From Candidatus Bathyarchaeota archaeon (GTDB lineage: Archaea; Thermoproteota; Bathyarchaeia; Bathyarchaeales; Bathycorpusculaceae), in assembly GCA_963782525.1 (NCBI GenBank), contig CAWAKC010000001.1:256001-320000 (forward strand): 64,000 nt of DNA, written 5' to 3'. This document shows positions 1,206 through 20,428 of this stretch, one piece after another. Position numbers and translations under genes: made by a program. Below the pieces are notes generated by a model. That model had not been told where the DNA came from and searched no databases. It worked only from the letters and a program-made list of their open reading frames with translations. The first letter of the stretch is position 1; each line of letters starts with the position of its first letter.

Positions 1206-2276
1206 ATGCCCCGACCATCCGTTTGCATCAAAGTTCCGAAAAATCTAGGCGAAAAAACCCTAACGTTAGCAATCAAACTTGGGCTTGCCGACAAATCGCT
1301 GGTTATTCAACGGGAAGAAGACAGCCTCATCATTCCCCTATTCAGGGAGCCCCAAGGGATTGAGTTAACAACTCTGGAAAGCCAGATTCCAAAATTCAAG
1401 CTCTACACCGCTGTTTTCAGCGAAAAACAGCTCCCGCCAGAAACCCTAACCCAAGTTCTAGAAGACAAACTGCCTCCTGAATTGCTCGCTAAAGTTCCCC
1501 AAGCGTTCGACATAATCGGCGACATAGTAGTTATTGATATCCCACCCCAACTCAAAGCGTACCAGAAGACAATCGGCGAAGCAATCTTACAAACCCAAAA
1601 AAACGTCACAACCGTCCTTGCCAAAGCAAGCGACATCAGCGGCGTGTTTCGCATCCGAGACTACGATTTCATCGCTGGGGAACACAAAACTCAAACCATC
1701 CACCGCGAATTCGGCTGCCAGTACCACGTTGACATAGCAAAAGCATACTTTTCTCCACGGTTATCCCATGAACATGAGCGGGTGGCCGTACAGGTGCAGG
1801 ATGGCGAAAAGGTAGCAGATTTGTTTGCTGGAGTTGGCCCTTTCTCAGTGCTAATTGGCAAGAGGAATCCAACAGTGAAGGTTTACGCCGTTGACCTCAA
1901 TCCCGACGCTGTTGAACTGCTTAAGGTGAACGTGAGGGTTAACAGGGTTGAAGGTCACGTCTTCCCCATACTCGCCGATGCCAGAGAAATCTCTCAAATC
2001 AAGCTAAAGGGCGCCGCCGACCGAGTAATCATGAATCTCCCCGAAACCGCCATAGATTTTGTAGATGCTGCCTGCAATGCAATCAAGCCAGAAGGTGGGA
2101 TAGTTCACTTTTATGGGTTTGTCAGAGCCCCTGACACAATAGAAAACCTCAAGCAACGCTTTATTGAATTAGTGAAAAAGAATGGGCGAAAAGTCGAGAC
2201 ATTTACTTATGCCAAAAGCATCCGTGAGACCGCTCCTTTTGAGTCACAGGTTGTGTTAGACGCCCAAATCCGTTAG
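1206..2276 (+). CDS. trm5: Trm5/Taw2-family SAM-dependent tRNA methyltransferase
   Basis: AFDIIGDI, AYFSPRL, DLFAGVGPF SAM motif, DLNPDA, DRVIMNLP. Confidence 0.88.
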   Translation: MPRPSVCIKVPKNLGEKTLTLAIKLGLADKSLVIQREEDSLIIPLFREPQGIELTTLESQIPKFKLYTAVFSEKQLPPETLTQVLEDKLPPELLAKVPQAFDIIGDIVVIDIPPQLKAYQKTIGEAILQTQKNVTTVLAKASDISGVFRIRDYDFIAGEHKTQTIHREFGCQYHVDIAKAYFSPRLSHEHERVAVQVQDGEKVADLFAGVGPFSVLIGKRNPTVKVYAVDLNPDAVELLKVNVRVNRVEGHVFPILADAREISQIKLKGAADRVIMNLPETAIDFVDAACNAIKPEGGIVHFYGFVRAPDTIENLKQRFIELVKKNGRKVETFTYAKSIRETAPFESQVVLDAQIR

Positions 2277-2707
2277 CTCTCGACGTTTAAGGTTAACCTG
2301 ACTTTTTGTTCAGGGTCCTGAAGTTTTTCTACAAGAGCTCTTGGCAAATCAACAGAGGATTTGTCAGCGCAGATCGCCAGAGTTCGACTGCATACATAGT
2401 CACTTTTCCTAATCACTATATCCGTTTGGTGGCACAGACAGAGTTTAGGAGAGCCAAGAGCTTTGATTTCTTCTTTGAAGTCGCCTGCTTCGATAGTGAT
2501 GGTAACTTTTGCATTTAGCTTTCGCAGTTCCTGCTTAAATTGGATGCTTAAATCTGCAACCGATTTTTCCGCTGACAATGCAACGATGCAGTCGCCTTTC
2601 TTTGAAATATGAATATCCTTGGTAAACATCAGCGTTGTAGGGTGGACCGCTTGAATGTTTGGGTGTCCCAACGCCCAGAACGTTTCTGTTATTTGTTTGG
2701 GGCTCAA
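2273..2707 (-). CDS. DUF371 family protein
   Basis: GHPNIQAVHPTT, GDCIV, IVIRKSDY...RTLAI.ADK pattern of this conserved archaeal family. Confidence 0.85.
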   Translation of the reverse strand: MSPKQITETFWALGHPNIQAVHPTTLMFTKDIHISKKGDCIVALSAEKSVADLSIQFKQELRKLNAKVTITIEAGDFKEEIKALGSPKLCLCHQTDIVIRKSDYVCSRTLAICADKSSVDLPRALVEKLQDPEQKVRLTLNVES

Positions 2708-3670
2708 TTACTCGTTAACCTCAATCGAATCCACTTTACCATCCCCATCCAAATCAAACCCTTGAATAGCAACTGCGAAGGTATCTTCGCCCTTGTATTT
2801 TTCAAGGGTTTTCTTCCAAAAATTGGTTATTGCCAACACACACGCTTTGGTTCCAACTGCTTTGTTGCCAGCCAAAACCACTATTCGTTTGGTGGTGTCC
2901 CATGGATTAACGATTTTCGCAACCACACCTGAAACATCGGAAGTATAAACCTGCGCTGTCTTCGTTGAAGATAAACCACCTAGCAAAAACCCCTGCCCCG
3001 AAGATTGCATGATGAATTTTATGGGCAAATAATCGTTAACTTCCTGCGTCAACAGGTTTGTGCCTGGTCCGCCGACGAGGATGAGGTTGTTTTTTTCCTC
3101 CTTCTCCACCTTCACATCAACGTCCAATTTTACCGCAAACTCTGTTGGCATTTTGGCGAATTGCCCTAGAAAAAGCGCTAAGTGAGCTGCATAGTGACCG
3201 TCTCGAGCGCTGGTTTTGAAGGGTCCATGCGGCTGAGGGCTACCGACCACGATTTTTCCGTCGAAGGTGCCGTTATCAATGAATTCCTTGAAGAACTTCT
3301 GCAGTGGCTCGTCGAGGCTTAGTGTGCAAAGGTTCTGGATTGGCTTATAGCCTTGCGGGAATTCGATTCCGAAGGCTGGCGAAACAGTTTTGTAATATTT
3401 TGCTGTTGCGCCCTTCTTTTTTTCTTCACGCACGACCACAATGGCGCCTGCTTTGGCGAGTATTCTTATATGATAATAAATTTTTTGTTCATGCATGCCA
3501 AGTTGTTTGGCGATTTCTAAGGGGTACATTTCTTTTTTTGAGAGTATGGTGAGGATTTTCCAGCTGAGGTTGCCGAGTATCATTTTTAATTTTTGGGAGT
3601 CTGTTAGGACGCTTATTTCTTTTACTTCTTGGGTGTTGTCGTGGTCTTGGAGGAGAAGTTTTCTTTGCAT
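2708..3670 (-). CDS. ArsR-like winged-HTH transcriptional regulator with a C-terminal S-layer-C-like domain
   Basis: N-terminal MYPLEIAKQLGMHEQKIYYHIRILAKAG HTH; C-terminal NLILVGGPGTN...NPW...VLAG; ends with DLDGDGKVD. Confidence 0.75.
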   Translation of the reverse strand: MQRKLLLQDHDNTQEVKEISVLTDSQKLKMILGNLSWKILTILSKKEMYPLEIAKQLGMHEQKIYYHIRILAKAGAIVVVREEKKKGATAKYYKTVSPAFGIEFPQGYKPIQNLCTLSLDEPLQKFFKEFIDNGTFDGKIVVGSPQPHGPFKTSARDGHYAAHLALFLGQFAKMPTEFAVKLDVDVKVEKEEKNNLILVGGPGTNLLTQEVNDYLPIKFIMQSSGQGFLLGGLSSTKTAQVYTSDVSGVVAKIVNPWDTTKRIVVLAGNKAVGTKACVLAITNFWKKTLEKYKGEDTFAVAIQGFDLDGDGKVDSIEVNE

Positions 3671-3696
3671 TTTGTTCGATAGGATTAGGCAATGGT

Positions 3697-3807
3697 ACTA
3701 TAAAAAATTTATTTGTAGTGGTTCAAAAAATGGGTCAAAATATAGTTTGCACGCTTCTGTTTGCATGCAAATTTGATGATAACTATTAAAAAAAACTTTT
3801 TAGTAGT
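3697..3807. promoter_or_regulatory. Two candidate operators (ACTA-N15-TAGT) between the regulator and glmS
   Basis: ACTATAAAAAATTTATTTGTAGT at 3697-3719 and ACTATTAAAAAAAACTTTTTAGT(AGT) at 3782-3804(3807). Confidence 0.5.
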
Positions 3808-3892
3808 CAAACTAGTATATTAAAAATCCTTATTAACAAAACTCAAACTTCATAAGACATCAACATAATTATCACTCGAAGGCATCAAAAAA

Positions 3893-5722
3893 ATGTGTGG
3901 AATATTTGGCTGTATTTTAAAAGAAGGAAACGCTGCACCCCTTATCCATTCCTCGCTAAAACATCTTGAATACCGAGGTTACGACTCAGTCGGCATAGCA
4001 ACAATCTCAGACGGAAAAATCTTCATAAAAAAAGATGCAGGCAAAATAGATGAAGTAGACAAAATTGTCAACCTTGATGACATGTCAGGCAGTATAGGCA
4101 TCGGACACACACGCTGGGCAACACATGGCGCACCCCTGAAGGTTAACTCTCACCCACACATAGACTGCAAAGGCGAAATCGTCGTCGTCCATAACGGCAT
4201 CATCGAAAACTTCATGGAACTAAAAGAGGAACTTGAAGACTTAGGCCATACGTTTGTTTCAAAAACAGATACCGAAGTCATGCCTCATCTAATTGAGGAA
4301 ACGCTAAAACAAAACCCTAACCTCACTCTCCAACAAGCCGTTTTAGCCAGCCTCAAACGAATTGAAGGCTCCTACGCGTTCGCCATAATATCCACACGCG
4401 AGCCAGACAAGATAATCTGCGCCCGAAACGAAAGTCCCCTCGTGTTAGGGATCAACGGTAAAGGCATCTTCTGCGCCAGTGATATTCCAGCGTTTTTGGA
4501 AGTTACCAACAAAGCCGTCATGATAAATAACGGAGAACTCGTCATTCTTACCGCTGGCGGTTATGAAATCCGCAAAATCTCCGATAACAGTCCCATTATA
4601 CGCGATCCCATAACTGTGGAGTGGACCGCAGAGATGGCGGTGAAGCAGGGTTATCCACACTTTATGATTAAAGAAATCCATGAGCAACCCGAAACCCTGC
4701 GCAACACCCTCCGAATACAGGACCACTACTTGGATCTGCTCTCTACTTTCCTTGACCGCGCCAACGAAGTTTTCTTGGTTGCCTGCGGAACAAGCTACCA
4801 CGCATGTTTAGCAGCTTCATACATGTTCTCTAAACTGGCGTTCTTGCCTGCCTACCCTGTTTACGCCTCTGAGTTTTTGGAGCAATACGGCAAATCCGTT
4901 AACATCGACAGTACTATATTGGCTGTGAGTCAATCAGGCGAAACTGCAGATACAATTGCCGCTGTGTCTTGTGCACAGCAGCGCGCAGCAACCGTGCTAA
5001 GCTTAACTAACGTAATCGGCTCAACTATGACTCGTATTTCCCGAGTATACATCGGAACGCAGGCAGGTCCAGAAATCGGCGTCGCCGCAACCAAAACCTT
5101 CACTTCGCAACTTTCTGTCTTAGCTCAACTCGCTTTGAAGTTATCAAAGAAGCGGGGCAAAATTTCCCAAGACGAAATTGACATCCTAGAAGAGAATCTC
5201 AGAAAGATGCCTGAAGACGTCGATACTATTGTTCGGACACAAGAAGAAAAGATTAAACAAATCGCCAAAAAATATGCAACTTCTAAAGTGTTCTTCTTCC
5301 TGGGCAGAGGCATAAGCACCGCCACTGCGTTTGAAGGCAGACTCAAACTCATGGAAATTGCCTACATCCCATCCATAGCGTTCCCCGCAGGCGAAAGCAA
5401 ACATGGTCCAATCAGCCTAATCGAAGAAGGCTTCCCAGTAGTGTTTGTTTGTCCCAGTGATGACACCCATAAAACAGTCATTGGCAACATCATGGAAATG
5501 AAAGCCCGAGGCGCCCACATAATCTCCATTGTCGAGGAGGGCGACGAAGAAATCAAATCTTTATCAGAAGAATACATAGAGGTACCTAAGGGCATTCCAA
5601 GTGTGCTCTCGCCTATTCCGTTTGCGGTTCCGTTGCAGTTGCTGGCGTACTATGTGTCTTTGGAGAAAGGCGTTAACCCTGATATGCCAAGAAACCTGGC
5701 GAAGTCGGTTACCGTAAAGTAA
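3893..5722 (+). CDS. glmS: Glutamine--fructose-6-phosphate aminotransferase (isomerizing)
   Basis: MCGIFG catalytic Cys, GHTRWATHG, SQSGETADT, PRNLAKSVTVK. Confidence 0.98.
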   Translation: MCGIFGCILKEGNAAPLIHSSLKHLEYRGYDSVGIATISDGKIFIKKDAGKIDEVDKIVNLDDMSGSIGIGHTRWATHGAPLKVNSHPHIDCKGEIVVVHNGIIENFMELKEELEDLGHTFVSKTDTEVMPHLIEETLKQNPNLTLQQAVLASLKRIEGSYAFAIISTREPDKIICARNESPLVLGINGKGIFCASDIPAFLEVTNKAVMINNGELVILTAGGYEIRKISDNSPIIRDPITVEWTAEMAVKQGYPHFMIKEIHEQPETLRNTLRIQDHYLDLLSTFLDRANEVFLVACGTSYHACLAASYMFSKLAFLPAYPVYASEFLEQYGKSVNIDSTILAVSQSGETADTIAAVSCAQQRAATVLSLTNVIGSTMTRISRVYIGTQAGPEIGVAATKTFTSQLSVLAQLALKLSKKRGKISQDEIDILEENLRKMPEDVDTIVRTQEEKIKQIAKKYATSKVFFFLGRGISTATAFEGRLKLMEIAYIPSIAFPAGESKHGPISLIEEGFPVVFVCPSDDTHKTVIGNIMEMKARGAHIISIVEEGDEEIKSLSEEYIEVPKGIPSVLSPIPFAVPLQLLAYYVSLEKGVNPDMPRNLAKSVTVK

Positions 5723-5970: not shown

Positions 5971-6999
5971 TTAGCCGAACCATTTTTCCAGCGAAACTTT
6001 CCCCTTCTGCTTCTTGCTTCCTGCAGTCATCCGCTCGATGGATTTTTTGATGCGTTCCTCGCCGAACTCTTTTTCACGGCACATAAAATCGATTAAACCA
6101 TTCTCATCGGGTTCTTTCCATTCTATCTTGTAGTTGTCGACAACTTTTGGGTGCAGGAAGATTTGCTGTATTTCTTCTATTTTGTCAGCAAAATCCACGT
6201 TTTCTATATGTGGCAAAGCATTCTTCAAAGTTCCGTATTGCTTTATAAGTTTTAACGCTGTTTTTGGACCTACCCCTTTTACACCGTCAGGGTTAAAGTC
6301 AGTGCCAATCAAGATGCCAACGTCAATCAGCTGCTCACGTGTCAAACCACATTCATGAAGCGTTTTAGGTAACTCAACTATTTCAGGCACCACTTCAATC
6401 GTGACTTTTCCTCTTTTTCTTCTTCCAGAAATGGTCACGTTTCTAAGCAGCTTGCACGCGCCGAAAAGTAGGCTATCGTAGTCTTGGCTTGCGCAGTAGT
6501 CTGCGTCGCCCTTTATGTTCATGTGCGCTGCTTGAGCTTCACCTTCACTCGGTGCCTGAACCCACGGCAACCCCATAAGCTCCAAGAGTTTCTGGCTATC
6601 ACCCAACATGTAGTCTTTCATGCTTGTTGACGCCTGAGCGTACATGCGCATTTTTTCTGTGTCGCCTTTTGACGCTGCTTTCTCGTAGCTGGCGACTGCT
6701 ACAACTTTTACTTGTCTGCGGCGCTCGATTTCAGAGGCTTTCAACGCAGGTGATTCCCCGTCAAAAACGTAAACTGGCTTAATCCCCATTTCAATTAGGT
6801 TGCTTGTGCGATAAAAGAGTCCGCTAAGGTGGCTTGTTATTTTTCCTGTGCTGTCTCTGAGGGGTGTGCCGTCAGGTTGGCGGATAATGCTGAGGAACTG
6901 GTAGATGGCGTTGTAAGCGTCGATGGCGATGACTTTTCCGCCTAAATCCTCGAGTTTAACAGGAGTTTTTGGTATAAGATCTTTGAAGTTTACGCCCAA
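5971..6999 (-). CDS. fen: Flap endonuclease 1
   Basis: IAIDAYNAIYQFL, APSEGEAQAA, SQDYDSLLFG, GTDFNPDG; likely TTG start at 6999 (MGVNFKDL). Confidence 0.96.
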   Translation of the reverse strand: MGVNFKDLIPKTPVKLEDLGGKVIAIDAYNAIYQFLSIIRQPDGTPLRDSTGKITSHLSGLFYRTSNLIEMGIKPVYVFDGESPALKASEIERRRQVKVVAVASYEKAASKGDTEKMRMYAQASTSMKDYMLGDSQKLLELMGLPWVQAPSEGEAQAAHMNIKGDADYCASQDYDSLLFGACKLLRNVTISGRRKRGKVTIEVVPEIVELPKTLHECGLTREQLIDVGILIGTDFNPDGVKGVGPKTALKLIKQYGTLKNALPHIENVDFADKIEEIQQIFLHPKVVDNYKIEWKEPDENGLIDFMCREKEFGEERIKKSIERMTAGSKKQKGKVSLEKWFG

Positions 7000-7147
7000 A
7001 ACGATTCCACACGTAAAGATAGGCAAGAATCCAACTTAATAAATTTACGAAGAGACTAAAATTTCAGTATATTCGGGGCCTATATCAACATTGCAGAAAG
7101 CTGTATTGGCGTAGGTCGTAATGGCGCTTTTTCAAGCCAATAGCATG

Positions 7148-7408
7148 TCAAGGTTTTAAACCGTTTATGGAACGAAGTGTTTTCTCGGCGGTGGATGCGC
7201 TGAAGAGTAAGTCGTCAATAGTAGCGGTGAAAGTGGCAAGTTTGCCTTCGCATTCAATGTGAGTTACTACTTTGTTGTTTTCCCGCTCAGTTTTAACATT
7301 TAAGCCAACGGGGGTTTTGAAGTTGTCCGGCGAAACCGCTTCTGCAACGGCTTTGGCGGTTTTCTGGTCTTTATACTCAAGCGTGACTGTTGCTTCCAAG
7401 CTTCTCAC
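7148..7408 (-). CDS. pcc1: KEOPS complex subunit Pcc1
   Basis: ~85 aa, AVSPDN, TIDDLL; downstream of rps15-DHH as in other archaea. Confidence 0.8.
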   Translation of the reverse strand: MRSLEATVTLEYKDQKTAKAVAEAVSPDNFKTPVGLNVKTERENNKVVTHIECEGKLATFTATIDDLLFSASTAEKTLRSINGLKP

Positions 7409-8849
7409 CCTTCAATTGCCGCCCAACCAACGCGTCAGCTGTTTTGATGAAAGAATCAAGCTTATCCAAGGGCACTTGTGCGCCTGCAGCAATGTTGTGC
7501 CCTCCACCTTTGCCGCCGTTTGCTTCCGAAGCTAACCGCATTACGTCACCGAGGTTGACGCCTTTTCGCAGTGCCGCCTCTGTAGTTCTTCCTGAGAATT
7601 TTGCGGCTTTTTCTGCGTCGATGTTGGCGAACGCTAAGAGCGGCTTTTGGTTGTTTGCTAGGCTCGCAACGATTATGGAGGAGACTGTGCCGATGATTTT
7701 TTCGTTGATAAAGTTTTCGCCGTAGATGACATAGATGTTTTGGAGTTCACGCATTCGTTCGGGTTTTTCAGCTACCCAACCGAGGTATTTATTGATGTTT
7801 TTGCGGTAGTCTTCGAGGATTTTGTTGGATTCTTCCAAGGCGGCTTTGCGGTCACCCATACAGATGGCGATGCCAAGGCTCGGACGGTCCATGCGTCCCG
7901 CTGAATTCAAAACCACAGCGAATTCTCGACCGTCCCGAAGAGCCGTGTTTGGCTCCTCTTTAGTTAAAACGTAAACATAACCAATTATGTCCTCGACTGC
8001 TAAATGTAGTCCCTTAGACATCAGATAATCTGCTAAACCGGAGCAAAGACGCGTTTTCTCTTCAGGGGTTAGGTCACTGAGACTTCGAGGTTTGTCTCCT
8101 TGTTTGGTCGGAATTTTCAATGTATCCTCAAGAAAATTAATCGTTTGAGTTTCTTGACCGCTTAATCCCGGAATAAACGGGTTAGTTGTGGTTACAATCA
8201 TCTTGTAGAGCGGTCTTGTTTCTCGGCCAAAGAACATCAAGTCTTTTTCAACTTTGAGCAGACCAGTGGCTACCGCATCTTTTACGATTATTTCGTTTAG
8301 GCTTCGCATGCTACGTTGTTCATACTTATCTTGCATATCACCCAACGCGCCGACCAAAGCTATGGGCGCCAAATCAATATTTGTAGCGTTCACTGCTTTG
8401 GCCGCAAAATACGCCACACCTGAACCGCTAACATCCGTCGCCCCATCAATACCAAACAAGTGCGGATTCACTTGGGTGATGTTTGAGTTTGCGACTTTGC
8501 TATTTACTTGGTGATGATCAAGGATTACAACTTTGAAGTTTGGGATTTTCTCGTTGAGTAGGTCGAGGTAGCCGCTTCCAAAATCGGTTAGAATTATGAG
8601 CTGAGGTTTGTCAGCGATGACTTCGCCGATGATTTTATCATCAACCCACTGCATCACACGTATGCGGAAACGGGCGTCGAGTCGACTAAGCATTTTGCCC
8701 ATGACGCCTGCGGCAGCTACACCGTCGGCATCCAAATGCGAAAAAACCAAGATAAAACCGTCTTTCTTGACAGTTTCCAAAATTACTTTTGCTGCTTCGC
8801 TTGCAGCCGCTAAGAAGCCTTCGATATTTTGCTGTTGCAATGTCGCCAT
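7377..8849 (-). CDS. DHH/DHHA1 family phosphoesterase (RecJ-like)
   Basis: SHLDADG, LTDFG, ILDHH, GALGD, GGGHNIAAG. Confidence 0.9.
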   Translation of the reverse strand: MATLQQQNIEGFLAAASEAAKVILETVKKDGFILVFSHLDADGVAAAGVMGKMLSRLDARFRIRVMQWVDDKIIGEVIADKPQLIILTDFGSGYLDLLNEKIPNFKVVILDHHQVNSKVANSNITQVNPHLFGIDGATDVSGSGVAYFAAKAVNATNIDLAPIALVGALGDMQDKYEQRSMRSLNEIIVKDAVATGLLKVEKDLMFFGRETRPLYKMIVTTTNPFIPGLSGQETQTINFLEDTLKIPTKQGDKPRSLSDLTPEEKTRLCSGLADYLMSKGLHLAVEDIIGYVYVLTKEEPNTALRDGREFAVVLNSAGRMDRPSLGIAICMGDRKAALEESNKILEDYRKNINKYLGWVAEKPERMRELQNIYVIYGENFINEKIIGTVSSIIVASLANNQKPLLAFANIDAEKAAKFSGRTTEAALRKGVNLGDVMRLASEANGGKGGGHNIAAGAQVPLDKLDSFIKTADALVGRQLKGEKLGSNSHA

Positions 8850-8943
8850 GCCCAGTCACTTTCTTTTGGGCTAAAAGGGGATGATTGGATTTAAAGCTGG
8901 CGCATCAAGAACCAATAAAAAGTAAAATTAAAAGAAGAAAAGT

Positions 8944-9384
8944 TTAGGTTACGGAAGCGATTTTTGGCACATACTTCCAGTTCTGTGCGATAACGCCTTC
9001 ACGTTTGTAGTAGCGACTAAGTTTGTGGATTTGGGCTTCAATGATTTGCATGTTGCGTTTGTTGTGAAGGTCTTTCTTGTTCTTGTCCATGTGGACGGCG
9101 AGGCTTTGTGCTTTTTTCATGAGGTTGGATAGGTCTTCAGGCATTGTTGGAGCTAAGTTTGCGGCTTTTAATGTGTCGCTTATGCTCTTGCCTGTGATGG
9201 GTTTTACGAGTGGAATTGCGTATTGGTCACGTAGGATTGTGCCTATGCTGCTGAGTGAGTGGCCTTCTTTAGCCAGTTTAATTATGAATGATTCTACTTC
9301 TTCAGGCTGATATTTGCACCAGCTTGGAGGACGCCTGCTGACAGGACGCATCGAATGGGATTTCCCTTTTTCTTGCTTTGGCAT
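8944..9384 (-). CDS. rps15: 30S ribosomal protein S15 (uS15)
   Basis: GKSHSMRP, IGTILRDQYAIP, PEDL, KKDLHNKR...IHKLSRYYK. Confidence 0.96.
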   Translation of the reverse strand: MPKQEKGKSHSMRPVSRRPPSWCKYQPEEVESFIIKLAKEGHSLSSIGTILRDQYAIPLVKPITGKSISDTLKAANLAPTMPEDLSNLMKKAQSLAVHMDKNKKDLHNKRNMQIIEAQIHKLSRYYKREGVIAQNWKYVPKIASVT

Positions 9385-17584: not shown

Positions 17585-18208
17585 CTATTTGGTTAGGGTT
17601 AGGCGTTTTGTTTCGCCGCAGGGTGTTTGTTCGTCAAAGATTATGGCTTTGAACTTGTAGATTTTTGTGTCCTTAGTTAGCCATGTGTCGGGTGGTAAGC
17701 CTGCTTTCATGCAGCATTGACAGAGGAATTCTTCTTCGCACCAACCCCACTCAACAGGCACCTGCGGCAACAACAGGCCCTTGTATGGTCCTCTTTCAAC
17801 GATTAAGCCGTCTTCGCCAACCTTGATTTTGCTTACGTATTCCTTTGGGTTCTTTGTTTCTACGGACTCAGGTGGCGTTAACACGCTCACCTCAAAAACA
17901 ACCTTGTCGAGTTCTTCGAGGGTTAAGGGTTCAAAGCGAGGATCCTCTGTTGCGGCGTTAATAGCGCTGTCAATCACTGCCTCCACCAAAGGGCTTGTGG
18001 GGTAGGGGTAACCGATGCAGCCGCGAAGCTCCTTCTCGCCGCCCTTAACGCTGTTTATGGTCACAAATACGCCACAGTGTTCAAACAGTTTTTTGGGTGT
18101 TTCTTTTGGCGGTTTTGCACCTTTACCGATTTCTAAGTATTGTTCGACGGTATTTCTTGCGAGTTTAATTAAAAATTTTCCTTCTTCATCTGTCAGTTCA
18201 AACGACAT
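17585..18208 (-). CDS. AMMECR1-domain protein (TIGR00296 family)
   Basis: GVFVT, LRGCIG, DPRF, EVSVLT, GLLLPQV, C.KAG. Confidence 0.93.
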   Translation of the reverse strand: MSFELTDEEGKFLIKLARNTVEQYLEIGKGAKPPKETPKKLFEHCGVFVTINSVKGGEKELRGCIGYPYPTSPLVEAVIDSAINAATEDPRFEPLTLEELDKVVFEVSVLTPPESVETKNPKEYVSKIKVGEDGLIVERGPYKGLLLPQVPVEWGWCEEEFLCQCCMKAGLPPDTWLTKDTKIYKFKAIIFDEQTPCGETKRLTLTK

Positions 18209-18272
18209 AAAGCTCCTTCCTAGCGCTGCTCAACCACTCAAATAAACTAAAAAGTATTAAAAATAAAGTTGG

Positions 18273-18971
18273 TTAAAACTTTATGGATTCTTCAGTTACG
18301 CCTTCCTTAGTTATGATAAGGAAGTCGATTCCGTCGCCACTCATCGAGTCTCGGCTAATAGCAGACTTTATTGAGCGTGTAACGAGTTCTTTTGCTTCTT
18401 CAGCACTCATCGTTTCTTTGTAGCCTTCCTCAAGAACGCCCATGGCGATTTCCGTGCCTGAACCAACAACCGCGTATTTGTCAGGTATCAAAGATCCCAA
18501 GACGTCGAGCACAAAGAGTGATGGACCTTCATCATCTAAGCCGCCAACGATGGTTTGGGTGAACAGCGGTGAATATCTTCGGTTGAAGAGTACGTTGGCT
18601 AAGAGCTTTGAGGCTGAGCGCACGCTGATTTTTCTGCCGACGTCCATGCTGTAGAGTTGTGCTTGTGCCTGCATCTCCTTGGCGAGGATCTGCATGTCAC
18701 CCACGAGTCCTGCGCACGCGACGCCGATTTGGTCTGTTACTTTGAAGACTTTTTTGCCGCCCTTACTCATGATAAAGTTGCCGTAGGTGACTCTTTTCTC
18801 TGAAGCCAAGATTACACCGTCTTTGAAGATTGCACCGACGGTGGTTGCACCAGGCATCCATGCCATGCCCTGTTGAGCTTGGTTGCCTTGGCCTTGCTGT
18901 TGTTCCTGCGGCATCAGCTGGATTTGTGGAATATTCGGTAAAGTTGGTAATTGTGGTCCATAACCTTCCAT
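18273..18971 (-). CDS. psmB: Proteasome subunit beta, probably non-catalytic type (GATTVG), with Gln-rich propeptide
   Basis: TTVG...DGVILASEKR, AGLVGDMQ, GSG...A.G.LE, RDSMSGDG; ATG at 18971. Confidence 0.9.
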   Translation of the reverse strand: MEGYGPQLPTLPNIPQIQLMPQEQQQGQGNQAQQGMAWMPGATTVGAIFKDGVILASEKRVTYGNFIMSKGGKKVFKVTDQIGVACAGLVGDMQILAKEMQAQAQLYSMDVGRKISVRSASKLLANVLFNRRYSPLFTQTIVGGLDDEGPSLFVLDVLGSLIPDKYAVVGSGTEIAMGVLEEGYKETMSAEEAKELVTRSIKSAISRDSMSGDGIDFLIITKEGVTEESIKF

Positions 18972-19052
18972 AATTTTCGCCTTTTCTTGATATACACAAG
19001 ACAAATTATTAAGGTTACTTATAACCATTAATGACTGAGCGAAGTGGCTTGC

Positions 19053-19223
19053 ATGAGTAAGTCAGAACCGTTAAAGTGCCAAAAATGCGGCAAAACCCTC
19101 GGTTATGTATCGGTTACCGCAAAAAGCGTTTTAGCATCTAAACCCCAAGTCGACAACGTAAAATTGGTTGCAACATGCATAGATTGCACAGGCGGGAACA
19201 GCTTTTACCGCAGAAACTTTTAA
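19053..19223 (+). CDS. Small zinc-ribbon protein (56 aa)
   Basis: Read manually: MSKSEPLKCQKCGKTLGYV...ATCIDCTGGNSFYRRNF*; two CxxC; not in the ORF track. Confidence 0.65.
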   Translation: MSKSEPLKCQKCGKTLGYVSVTAKSVLASKPQVDNVKLVATCIDCTGGNSFYRRNF

Positions 19224-19259
19224 CATGCACCATGCCCATCGAAATGAAGAGACAACTGA

Positions 19260-19844
19260 ATGATTGAAGTCTACGCCCAAAACCTCGACAACACATGGTT
19301 TGCAGTAGCACTCAACAAACAACAAATCGTCACGTCATCTTTTGGAGCTGAGCAAAAAAACGCCCTAAACAACATATTAGGAAAATTGCCTTTTAACATT
19401 CCTTTTCAGGTTTTCCATGAACCCATAGCGTCCGCCAAAACAGCTCTTTCAGCTTTGAAATGCATTTACGACGGAAAAGAAAACAAAATTGCATTACAGC
19501 TGGCAACATCGCGTCTTCCGGCTTACACCAAAAAAGTCCTAACGACTACCTCGGCGATTCCGCTTGGATTCATAACTTCTTATGGGTCAATAGCTAAAGC
19601 TGTCGGCGGGGGACCGCGAGCAGTCGGAAACATAATGGCGTCTAACCCGTTTGCTCCCATCGTTCCCTGCCACCGAGTGGTTAAATCTGATTTTACGTTA
19701 GGCGGCTATGGGTTTGGTTTAAGAGTGAAGGCGGAATTGTTAAGAAAAGAGAAACGAGGGTTTTCTTCAATGAAAGAAATTGAAGTCAAAGGTGGACTGC
19801 TTAGGGTTTATCCTGTTGAGAACGTTCTTAAAAATTTTGATTAA
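19260..19844 (+). CDS. ogt: Methylated-DNA--protein-cysteine methyltransferase
   Basis: SYGSIA, PRAVG, NP...IVPCHRVV active site. Confidence 0.92.
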   Translation: MIEVYAQNLDNTWFAVALNKQQIVTSSFGAEQKNALNNILGKLPFNIPFQVFHEPIASAKTALSALKCIYDGKENKIALQLATSRLPAYTKKVLTTTSAIPLGFITSYGSIAKAVGGGPRAVGNIMASNPFAPIVPCHRVVKSDFTLGGYGFGLRVKAELLRKEKRGFSSMKEIEVKGGLLRVYPVENVLKNFD

Positions 19845-19891
19845 ACGGGTTTGCGCAAATGATAAATGCATGTGAGCCCCACTGAAAGCAA

Positions 19892-20428
19892 GTGAGCACC
19901 ATGGTTAATCGAGGCCTCTATGTTGGAAGATTTCAACCTTTCCATTTAGGACACCTAGACGCCATCAAATATGCCCTAAAAGAGATTGATGAACTCGTCA
20001 TTGTTATCGGCAGCGCCCAATATAGCCACACAGCCAAAAATCCGTTCACAGCAGGAGAGAGGTTAGTTATGGTTCGCCAAGCACTACGGGAGGCTGGGGT
20101 GGCTGATTCTAAACTTTGGATTGTTCCTGTCCCAGACGTTCACCTACACATGCTCTGGGTCAGTGCCGTTGAAGGCTACACACCCAAATTCAACTCAGTA
20201 TTCTCAAACGAGCCTTTAACTAAACGACTGTTCATGGAAGCTGGCTACGAAGTCAAAACCATTCCTCTTTTTGAGAGAAAAGTCTACATGTCCACCTTCG
20301 TGCGTGAAAAAATGGTTAAAGACGTCAGTTGGACAGAGTTTGTGCCTAAAAGTGTAGCTGACTTCATCTTGGAGATAGATGGCGTTAACAGGCTCAGAGA
20401 CTTAGCTAGAACAGACCGAGTCACTTAA
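19892..20428 (+). CDS. nadM: Nicotinamide-nucleotide adenylyltransferase
   Basis: GRFQPFHLGH, IGSAQYSH...NPFTAGER. Confidence 0.93.
   Translation: MSTMVNRGLYVGRFQPFHLGHLDAIKYALKEIDELVIVIGSAQYSHTAKNPFTAGERLVMVRQALREAGVADSKLWIVPVPDVHLHMLWVSAVEGYTPKFNSVFSNEPLTKRLFMEAGYEVKTIPLFERKVYMSTFVREKMVKDVSWTEFVPKSVADFILEIDGVNRLRDLARTDRVT

Follow-up and report, generated by a model that had tools for sequence, protein, structure and literature searches.

GlmS carries out the committed step of UDP-N-acetylglucosamine (UDP-GlcNAc) synthesis, and this point of entry into the hexosamines feeds N-glycans, S-layer glycans and pseudomurein precursors. In bacteria the step is under dedicated control by the glmS ribozyme, by GlmY/GlmZ/RapZ or by NagC, with a logic of feedback by glucosamine 6-phosphate (GlcN6P). 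In this work we have analysed a window of 64,000 nucleotides (64 kb) from a Candidatus Bathyarchaeota archaeon (assembly GCA_963782525.1, contig CAWAKC010000001.1, positions 256001-320000), in which glmS is arranged divergently with the gene of a 320-aa protein that we label REG (window positions 2708-3670, minus strand). Described proteins resemble either half of REG. Pyrococcus PH1932 (1ULY/2CWE) and the heat-shock regulator Phr (2P4W) share with it an N-terminal beta-hairpin and a winged helix-turn-helix (wHTH), but their C-terminal halves are unrelated to its S_layer_C-type domain. The anchor domain of the Methanococcus voltae S-layer protein (9FSA) shares the fold of the C-terminal half, together with the strings IVVGS, LDTEV, LILVGGPxxN and VLVxAG, and it is described as a dimerising domain on a 2-fold axis (PMC11410804).

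A preliminary description of the locus, made from the sequence alone, knew of no archaeal equivalent of bacterial glmS control, and none was found in the literature that we searched, with subscription-only papers and supplements outside its scope. Within that literature, the titles and abstracts listed on glmS regulators were all bacterial or general, what was found on S_layer_C (PF05124) concerned surface proteins only, and no description of the combination of a helix-turn-helix (HTH) with S_layer_C was found. No characterised relative of REG appeared in the family libraries and literature searched.

Domain structure and family of REG

REG joins a wHTH to a domain that is truly homologous to the S-layer anchor (S_layer_C). 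The features of the protein and its divergent partner are the following, in window coordinates.

2708-3670 (stop codon included), minus strand: REG, a 320-aa wHTH and S-layer-anchor-like protein (open reading frame; Pfam HTH_20 and S_layer_C)
3371-3601, minus strand: winged helix-turn-helix of PH1932/Phr-like ArsR type, residues ~24-100 (structure superposition, family profile)
2711-3307, minus strand: C-terminal S-layer-anchor-like domain, residues ~122-320 (9fsa_A superposition, Foldseek, profile)
3191-3250, minus strand: family-specific segment VVGSPQPHGPFKTSARDGHY, residues 141-160, PxPHGP...ARDGHY (conservation in 53 sequences)
2729-2755, minus strand: DLDGDGKVD loop of DxDxDG type in the C-terminal hairpin, residues 306-314 (conservation in 53 sequences)
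3893-5722, plus strand: glmS, glutamine--fructose-6-phosphate transaminase (TIGR01135, E 8.9e-213, 708 bits against a cut-off of 418)

Pfam finds HTH_20 at residues 39-80 (E 3.4e-9, 37.0 bits, cut-off 27), HTH_5 (E 1.4e-5, 25.3 bits, cut-off 22) and S_layer_C at residues 176-282 (E 2.8e-9, 37.3 bits, cut-off 23.9), and REG is the only match to PF05124 in its own genome. An AlphaFold2 model built on a 53-row alignment (REG and 52 relatives) has a mean predicted local distance difference test (pLDDT) score of 93.2. Superposed with VIA-align, the wHTH of this model matches 2cwe_A with Z 12.6 and a root-mean-square deviation (rmsd) of 1.4 over 73 aligned residues at 37% identity, many ArsR, MarR and PadR chains reach Z 9-10, and the family profile finds PH1932 (1uly) with E 1.7e-17 over ~105 residues. 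Model residues 122-286 match 9fsa_A with Z 13.6 and rmsd 2.7 (127 of 135 residues, 31% identity), a relation also recovered for the C-domain by Foldseek (E 1.7e-5) and by the family profile (E 1.1e-8); the next fold matches, the N-terminal domains of GH115 and GH67 glucuronidases and residues 532-718 of BcsB, lie at Z 10-11. The preliminary description had seen a 320-aa protein, separated by 222 bp from a divergent glmS, in which an ArsR-type wHTH is joined to an S-layer-like domain, and had suggested structure prediction and a fold search of the latter. The reading frame coordinates and TIGR01135 agree with this, the Pfam domains and the fold match to 9FSA bear out both halves, and the motif strings that it quoted are present in the translation (NLILVGGPGTN at 195-205, NPW at 255-257, VVLAG at 264-268 and DLDGDGKVD at 306-314).

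Several more familiar assignments were considered and set aside. As an ArsR/SmtB metalloregulator REG reaches 22 bits with NCBIfam NF033788 (HTH_metalloreg), against a cut-off of 55. NCBIfam has no model covering the whole protein, and its Phr_regulator model matches the HTH only (E 4.3e-6, 26 bits against 320). The TrmB model PF01978 gives 22.1 bits against 25.6, and Pfam detects neither a TrmB C-terminal domain nor a ROK domain. Because both models stay below their cut-offs and the C-domains are unrelated, REG stands outside the TrmB and Phr families beyond the shared wHTH class. Nor is it an S-layer protein proper: TIGR01564 (S_layer_MJ) reaches 22 bits against 25 and covers model positions 490-531 only, the length is 320 aa against about 500-600 aa, the anchor domain is contiguous, and there is an HTH at the N-terminus.

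Across the 53 aligned sequences, residues G143, H148, G149, D183, G200, N205, G268 and D306 are invariant, and P145, D157, G201, P202, P256, D310, G311 and D314 are at least 90% conserved, as are Q62 and Y66 in the HTH. In the profile alignment the S-layer protein has no counterpart of the PxPHGP...ARDGHY segment, and on the DxDxDG loop the Pfam model EF-hand_5 stays at 13.5 bits, below its cut-off of 25.9. Modelled as a homodimer, residues 105-320 scored 0.67, against 0.00 for the best of three controls, with a contact agreement of at least 78% and a partner pLDDT of at least 84 across the runs; among 30 proteins whose solved structures are pairs of one chain, 20 attain the mark used for this score, and among 23 whose solved structures are single chains, one does. 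The predicted symmetric interface is made of residues 136-182 (helix 158-170), 275-283 and 312, and residues 142-143, 145-146, 154-156 and 158-170 of the family-specific region sit in it.

The REG family keeps a fixed two-domain architecture. A full-length search returned 3,729 proteins at E<=0.001 (90% clustering) among 6,257 candidates, and the best 120 matches, 86-97% identical and 319-328 aa long, bear only the names 'ArsR family regulator', 'helix-turn-helix domain-containing protein' and 'hypothetical'. When residues 101-320 were searched against 1.84 billion cluster representatives (50% clustering), 337 matched at E<=1e-3. Among the best 150 of these, ~125 are proteins of 274-369 aa with the match starting near residue 90-170, the remainder being shorter pieces, and none has the size of an S-layer protein, the longest having at most 369 aa. 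An ESM Atlas search with the C-domain found its own kind only, with scores of at most 0.89. Named members of the family come from Nitrososphaerota, Woesearchaeota, Thermoplasmata and 'Methanobacteriota' metagenome-assembled genomes. REG is carried by 54 of 301 sampled genomes of the phylum, by all sampled members of some families (11/11, 4/4, 3/3) and by none of others (0/43, 0/25, 0/20), and among related genomes within the order it is single-copy in 40 of 41, at 62-96% identity. REG most likely founds a family of archaeal one-component transcription factors that is so far uncharacterised. At two loci (L004, G011:C2, and L016, G016:C6) frameshifts or assembly errors are possible: in one relative glmS aligns in four overlapping pieces, and in another REG aligns in two (1-304 and 284-320).

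Pairing with glmS and the dyads of the spacer

REG and glmS, whose product contains GATase_6 and two SIS domains (Pfam), diverge from a spacer of 222 bp (3671-3892). In the order, every one of the 29 loci with enough flanking sequence has glmS divergent from REG; 27 of the spacers measure 189-281 bp and two have 1.2-2.0 kb inserted. This pairing alone proves little, because the whole Trm5-DUF371-REG-glmS-Fen1 block is syntenic within the order. More telling are 20 loci outside the order, in other families and classes of the phylum, at which REG is 29-54% identical and Trm5, DUF371 and Fen1 are all absent nearby. At 12 of them glmS is again divergent from REG, once by way of a GNAT-glmS pair; two have a divergent GNAT acetyltransferase without glmS, one has a divergent GlmU-like gene (NTP_transf_4 and Hexapep, L129:7046-8332), and two are ambiguous. 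The link of REG to glmS and hexosamine genes is kept at deep divergence; in distant Thermoproteota the divergent pair with glmS recurs at a REG identity of ~33-55%, among other flanking genes. In 80 Bathyarchaeia species genomes glmS was adjacent to REG in 56, within 1.1-3.4 kb in 15 and not found in six, with three loci too short. Among the six, L032 is probably a missed case, since the glmS of this genome aligns in fragments. A further 80 loci came from metagenomes. Those with REG below 58% identity comprised 11 with adjacent glmS, two with none and two too short, and those with at least 58% identity comprised 26 adjacent, 11 near, 16 with none (at least 700 nt of upstream DNA) and 12 too short. 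The genes inserted between REG and glmS vary (a PALP enzyme, radical SAM, FUN14, DNA glycosylase, GT2, protease). A small GNAT gene lies divergent from REG in two other families (L111:5142-5645, L112:5394-5912, L113:5336-5839), followed in L111 by glmS; it may encode a candidate GlcN6P N-acetyltransferase.

The spacer contains the following elements. The assignments of the TFB recognition element (BRE) and TATA box at both genes follow the archaeal promoter consensus and are presumptive.

3697-3722, no strand assigned: site A, 26-bp dyad ACTAT-N16-GTGGT, overlapping the putative REG BRE/TATA (conserved block in 22 spacers)
3698-3715, minus strand: putative REG core promoter, BRE-like CAAATAAA and TATA-like TTTTTTATAG, ~32 nt from the ATG (sequence and conservation)
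3782-3807, no strand assigned: site B, 26-bp dyad ACTAT-N16-GTAGT, upstream of the putative glmS promoter (position weight matrix, conserved block)
3820-3837, plus strand: putative glmS BRE/TATA TTAAAAATCCTTATTAAC (block C in 22 spacers of several families)
3851-3856, plus strand: CATAAG, possible glmS initiator region, ~27 nt after TTAAAAAT (conserved mainly within the genus)
3878-3882, plus strand: GAAGG, Shine-Dalgarno-like, 10 nt before the glmS ATG (GAAGG or GAGG in most aligned spacers)

We aligned 22 of the 27 short spacers, leaving out four near-duplicates and the one spacer of 281 bp. Three blocks are conserved: A beside REG (GGTACTATAAAAAATTTATTTATAATGGTTCAAAA), B (AACCATTAAAAA-N4-TTTTTAATGGTTnAAAC) and C (TTAAAAATnCTTATTAAC), the last of which we read as the glmS BRE/TATA. 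From the end of block B to block C there are 12-13 nt in 22/22 spacers, and the remaining spacer varies. The dyad unit common to both sites and to distant lineages has 26 bp, AC(C/T)AT-N16-(A/G)T(G/A)GT. In the form ACCAT-N16-ATGGT it recurs beside REG in distant lineages, GC-rich ones included, and one GC-rich lineage has a second copy with a GC-rich centre, a hint that the arms are the part recognised. The preliminary description had instead singled out two ACTA-N15-TAGT dyads. Both are present and lie within blocks A and B, and they are the only two in the window (3697-3719 and 3782-3804; shuffle mean 0.41), although this count alone is weak because 8 of 100 shuffles reach two. The TAGT letters, however, are not conserved and the right arms were off by 3 nt, so that 4-mer arms with N15 gave way, as the conserved feature, to the 26-bp unit.

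Of 17 genus-level spacers, 12 have the centres of sites A and B 86.5 bp apart, and a divergent one has them 74.5 bp apart; other families give 84.5, 63.5, 57, 55.5 and 53.5 bp. The differences between these values, few and dependent on the alignment, lie near multiples of the helical turn, which is suggestive of phasing, cooperative binding or looping. Three distant GC-rich loci (L176, L198, L199) have, besides ACCAT-N16-ATGGT by REG, a second and different palindrome near glmS, of the type TGCAAACC-N2-GGTTTGCA, which may be the site of another factor or a diverged operator. A glmS ribozyme in the glmS leader was also considered and rejected, since Rfam gave no match at E<=1 in window positions 3500-4100 on both strands.

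A rigid regular expression proved too strict for these dyads (57 of 189 upstream regions match a relaxed form and 9 a strict form), and we therefore used a position weight matrix (PWM) of site B from 18 species, with the source genome and its three closest relatives left out. Among the 5.7 million positions of the source genome, site B is the top hit with 34.3 bits and the next has 21.8; site A reaches 15.8 and 15.3 bits on the two strands, at about rank 20-22. The relaxed 26-bp pattern occurs 32 times in this 2.87-Mb genome, two of them in the REG-glmS spacer. Leave-one-out scores are 12.2-40.2 in 22/22 spacers, block A being the best hit in several, while random 300-nt windows have a mean of -3.1, a 95th percentile of 5.7 and a maximum of 15.4. 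Outside the training set 173 upstream regions were scored, and 49/51, 76/88 and 18/34 of them, by REG identity class, exceed 5.7. Control regions beyond the gene exceed it in 5/49, 0/79 and 3/31 cases, and none of these 159 exceeds 15.4. In five REG-less genomes of one family of the same order (REG 0/6 in the family), where glmS has other neighbours, the region upstream of glmS scores only -5.4 to 0.4. On this comparative evidence the two spacer sites are members of one conserved motif class, and this class co-occurs with the REG gene. The survey of gene neighbourhoods and the motif search upstream of orthologous glmS genes which the preliminary description had proposed came out in its favour: the amino-sugar linkage is kept at distant loci with other flanking genes, and the dyad, in its 26-bp form, is conserved in relatives with PWM scores above controls.

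Elsewhere in the genome, the ten next-best PWM hits (16.8-21.8 bits) lie inside open reading frames, between gene ends or far from starts. The glmM-glmU pair and a second NTP-transferase/GlmM-like pair, both far from glmS (G000:C6:126231-128791 and C7:284538-286973), have no dyad upstream, with PWM scores of -5.7 and -4.5. To judge from these predicted sites, the REG regulon appears to be local. One weak hit of 16.6-17.5 bits (G000:C12:17850-17882) lies 257 nt upstream of an unannotated 594-aa reading frame (18139-19923).

A proposed local regulator of glmS and its alternatives

The comparative evidence supports well the reading of REG as a putative regulator of glmS. How might it act on the two promoters? 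The PH1932/Phr-like wHTH would bind DNA, and the C-domain, homologous to the dimerising S-layer anchor of Methanococcales, would make a symmetric dimer that recognises the 26-bp dyads. Site A covers the BRE/TATA of REG, so occupancy should shut off REG; by occluding its own promoter the protein would repress itself and limit its own level. For glmS the opposite sign is proposed. Archaeal activators that aid TBP/TFB recruitment usually sit just upstream of BRE/TATA (Ptr2, TrmBL1 and similar), and because site B sits 12-13 nt upstream of this element, REG bound there may activate glmS by recruiting TBP/TFB. An effector may tune DNA binding at the polar cluster H148, R156, D157, H159, D183 and N205, at or near the predicted dimer interface, together with the acidic loop; GlcN6P, the product of the pathway step, and UDP-GlcNAc, its end product, would be the most plausible candidates. 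Taken as a whole, a dimeric local regulator that activates glmS and limits itself through two 26-bp dyads, with an effector-tuned C-domain, is the account that we consider somewhat probable.

Several findings weigh against this account. The sign of regulation rests on a general rule of archaeal site position, and the promoter elements were picked out by eye. A/T-rich BRE/TATA sequence makes up most of site A, whose resemblance to site B may in part reflect promoter composition. The dyad arms are degenerate, as the few matches of the regular expression among the 189 upstream regions indicate. In three of the 20 distant loci, all of one family, REG lies between ADH and RACo genes, and glmS is missing from the upstream DNA covered at no fewer than 6 of 80 and 16 of 65 Bathyarchaeia loci. 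The relatives compared are kin, so the counts overstate their independence. Since glmM-glmU lacks a site, REG does not appear to govern a pathway-wide regulon. Finally, the dimer score may reflect likeness to 9FSA, because this is a solved dimer of the same fold.

Could the C-domain be no more than a means of pairing? REG would then bind the same DNA, with the S-layer-like domain serving as a dimerisation or scaffold element without effector, and as a constitutive, autoregulated activator or repressor it would set glmS expression by its level, not by a ligand. Dimerisation alone could explain the domain, since the homodimer model is the only direct result for it and places the PHGP...RDGHY region at the predicted interface; moreover, the homologous S-layer domain is a dimerising anchor, and the GH115, GH67 and BcsB fold matches name no ligand site. 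Yet the invariant or nearly invariant polar residues H148, D157, D183 and N205 and the DxDxDG loop, kept across ~30% identity, suit a binding site better than a hydrophobic interface, and the S-layer homologue dimerises without the PHGP...RDGHY insert. We judge this explanation rather unlikely. Much the same holds for the most specific form of the effector proposal, which we put forward tentatively and regard as doubtful: that the S-layer-anchor-like domain represents an effector domain of a new class, acting in the cytoplasm. Its PHGP...RDGHY cluster would bind a metabolite of the hexosamines, GlcN6P or UDP-GlcNAc, at the dimer interface, and its DxDxDG loop perhaps a divalent metal.

It may also be that REG is a transcription factor with other main targets, for example cell-envelope genes, or with broad action, and that its pairing with glmS is inherited synteny. 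The syntenic block within the order would fit this, as would the family with REG between ADH and RACo genes and one metagenome locus in which a GT2 glycosyltransferase gene is the divergent neighbour. But the pairing with glmS outlasts a change of all other neighbours, the strongest PWM hit in the genome, by 12 bits, precedes glmS, and the next ten lie inside reading frames or between gene ends; one weak hit lies 257 nt upstream of a reading frame. We find such a regulator quite improbable. Least probable of all is that REG does not bind the spacer blocks and that these are no more than the core promoters and A/T-rich upstream elements of two housekeeping genes, for although site A coincides with BRE/TATA-like sequence, both site centres are A/T-rich and the ACTA-N15-TAGT count is within chance, the dyad symmetry and the G/C-containing arms are kept with changed letters between lineages (in one GC-rich lineage with a GC-rich centre), the motif is absent upstream of glmS in 5/5 REG-less relatives, and control regions score at the null level.

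Neighbouring genes and relation to known systems

One further feature adjoins REG.

2273-2707, minus strand: DUF371 gene, starting directly after the REG stop codon (PF04027, E 1.5e-44)

DUF371 lies directly downstream of REG in 30/30 loci of the order and beside it in 0/20 loci outside; it is probably co-transcribed with REG, in this order only, and may be co-regulated with it there. Its relatives of solved structure, 3cbn (MTH639) and 7y7n, name no function. Pfam confirms Trm5/TYW2 in the 132-2276 region, and the other neighbours (132-2276 and 5971-9384) resemble, by their translations, an RNA 3'-phosphate cyclase, a flap endonuclease, a RecJ/DHH-type protein and ribosomal protein S15; the surroundings are those of ordinary archaeal housekeeping genes. 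Contigs from four RNA-library runs, 90-99% alike, span parts of DUF371, REG and glmS, and those of one run (X5) also span 3540-3687, 3697-3844 and 3797-4034; such contigs do not show strand, starts or levels, and DNA carry-over is possible.

How does REG compare with the systems described so far? It is tied to glmS, whereas Phr-type regulators are tied to heat-shock genes, and the operator layout of Phr differs from the REG dyads. In the M. voltae S-layer protein the two chain ends (aa 24-75 and 484-576) come together to form the anchor domain, and ~400 residues of outer domains lie between these ends, whereas the domain of REG is contiguous; REG adds the HTH, the PxPHGP...ARDGHY segment and the C-terminal DxDxDG hairpin. 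The 9FSA domain pairs about a 2-fold axis, and the homodimer model predicts such a pairing for REG. A domain known so far only from extracellular S-layer proteins has a widespread cytoplasmic relative linked to DNA binding. TrmB and TrmBL1 offer a working analogy, as they combine a wHTH with a C-terminal effector and dimerisation domain and exert local control of sugar genes, as proposed for REG, although the fold of the TrmB C-domain is unrelated. TrmB and TrmBL1 activate or repress according to the position of their site relative to BRE/TATA.

The locus provides a concrete candidate pair of protein and operator. Its 26-bp sites are defined and its dimer is predicted, and the pair is open to in vitro tests although the host is uncultured. 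Proteins that at present carry no label beyond 'helix-turn-helix domain-containing' or 'ArsR family' would receive a name and a role from it. If the C-domain should prove to be a sensor, the Methanococcales and Thermococcales S-layer anchor would share ancestry with a sugar-recognising module, hinting at glycan recognition in anchoring, and many archaea (Bathyarchaeia, other Thermoproteota, Thermoplasmata, DPANN) would possess a protein-based feedback switch for glmS. In function such a switch would correspond to the glmS ribozyme and GlmY/Z of bacteria. The bacterial systems are RNA-based or of the ROK family, whereas REG is a divergently encoded protein predicted to act at the promoter.

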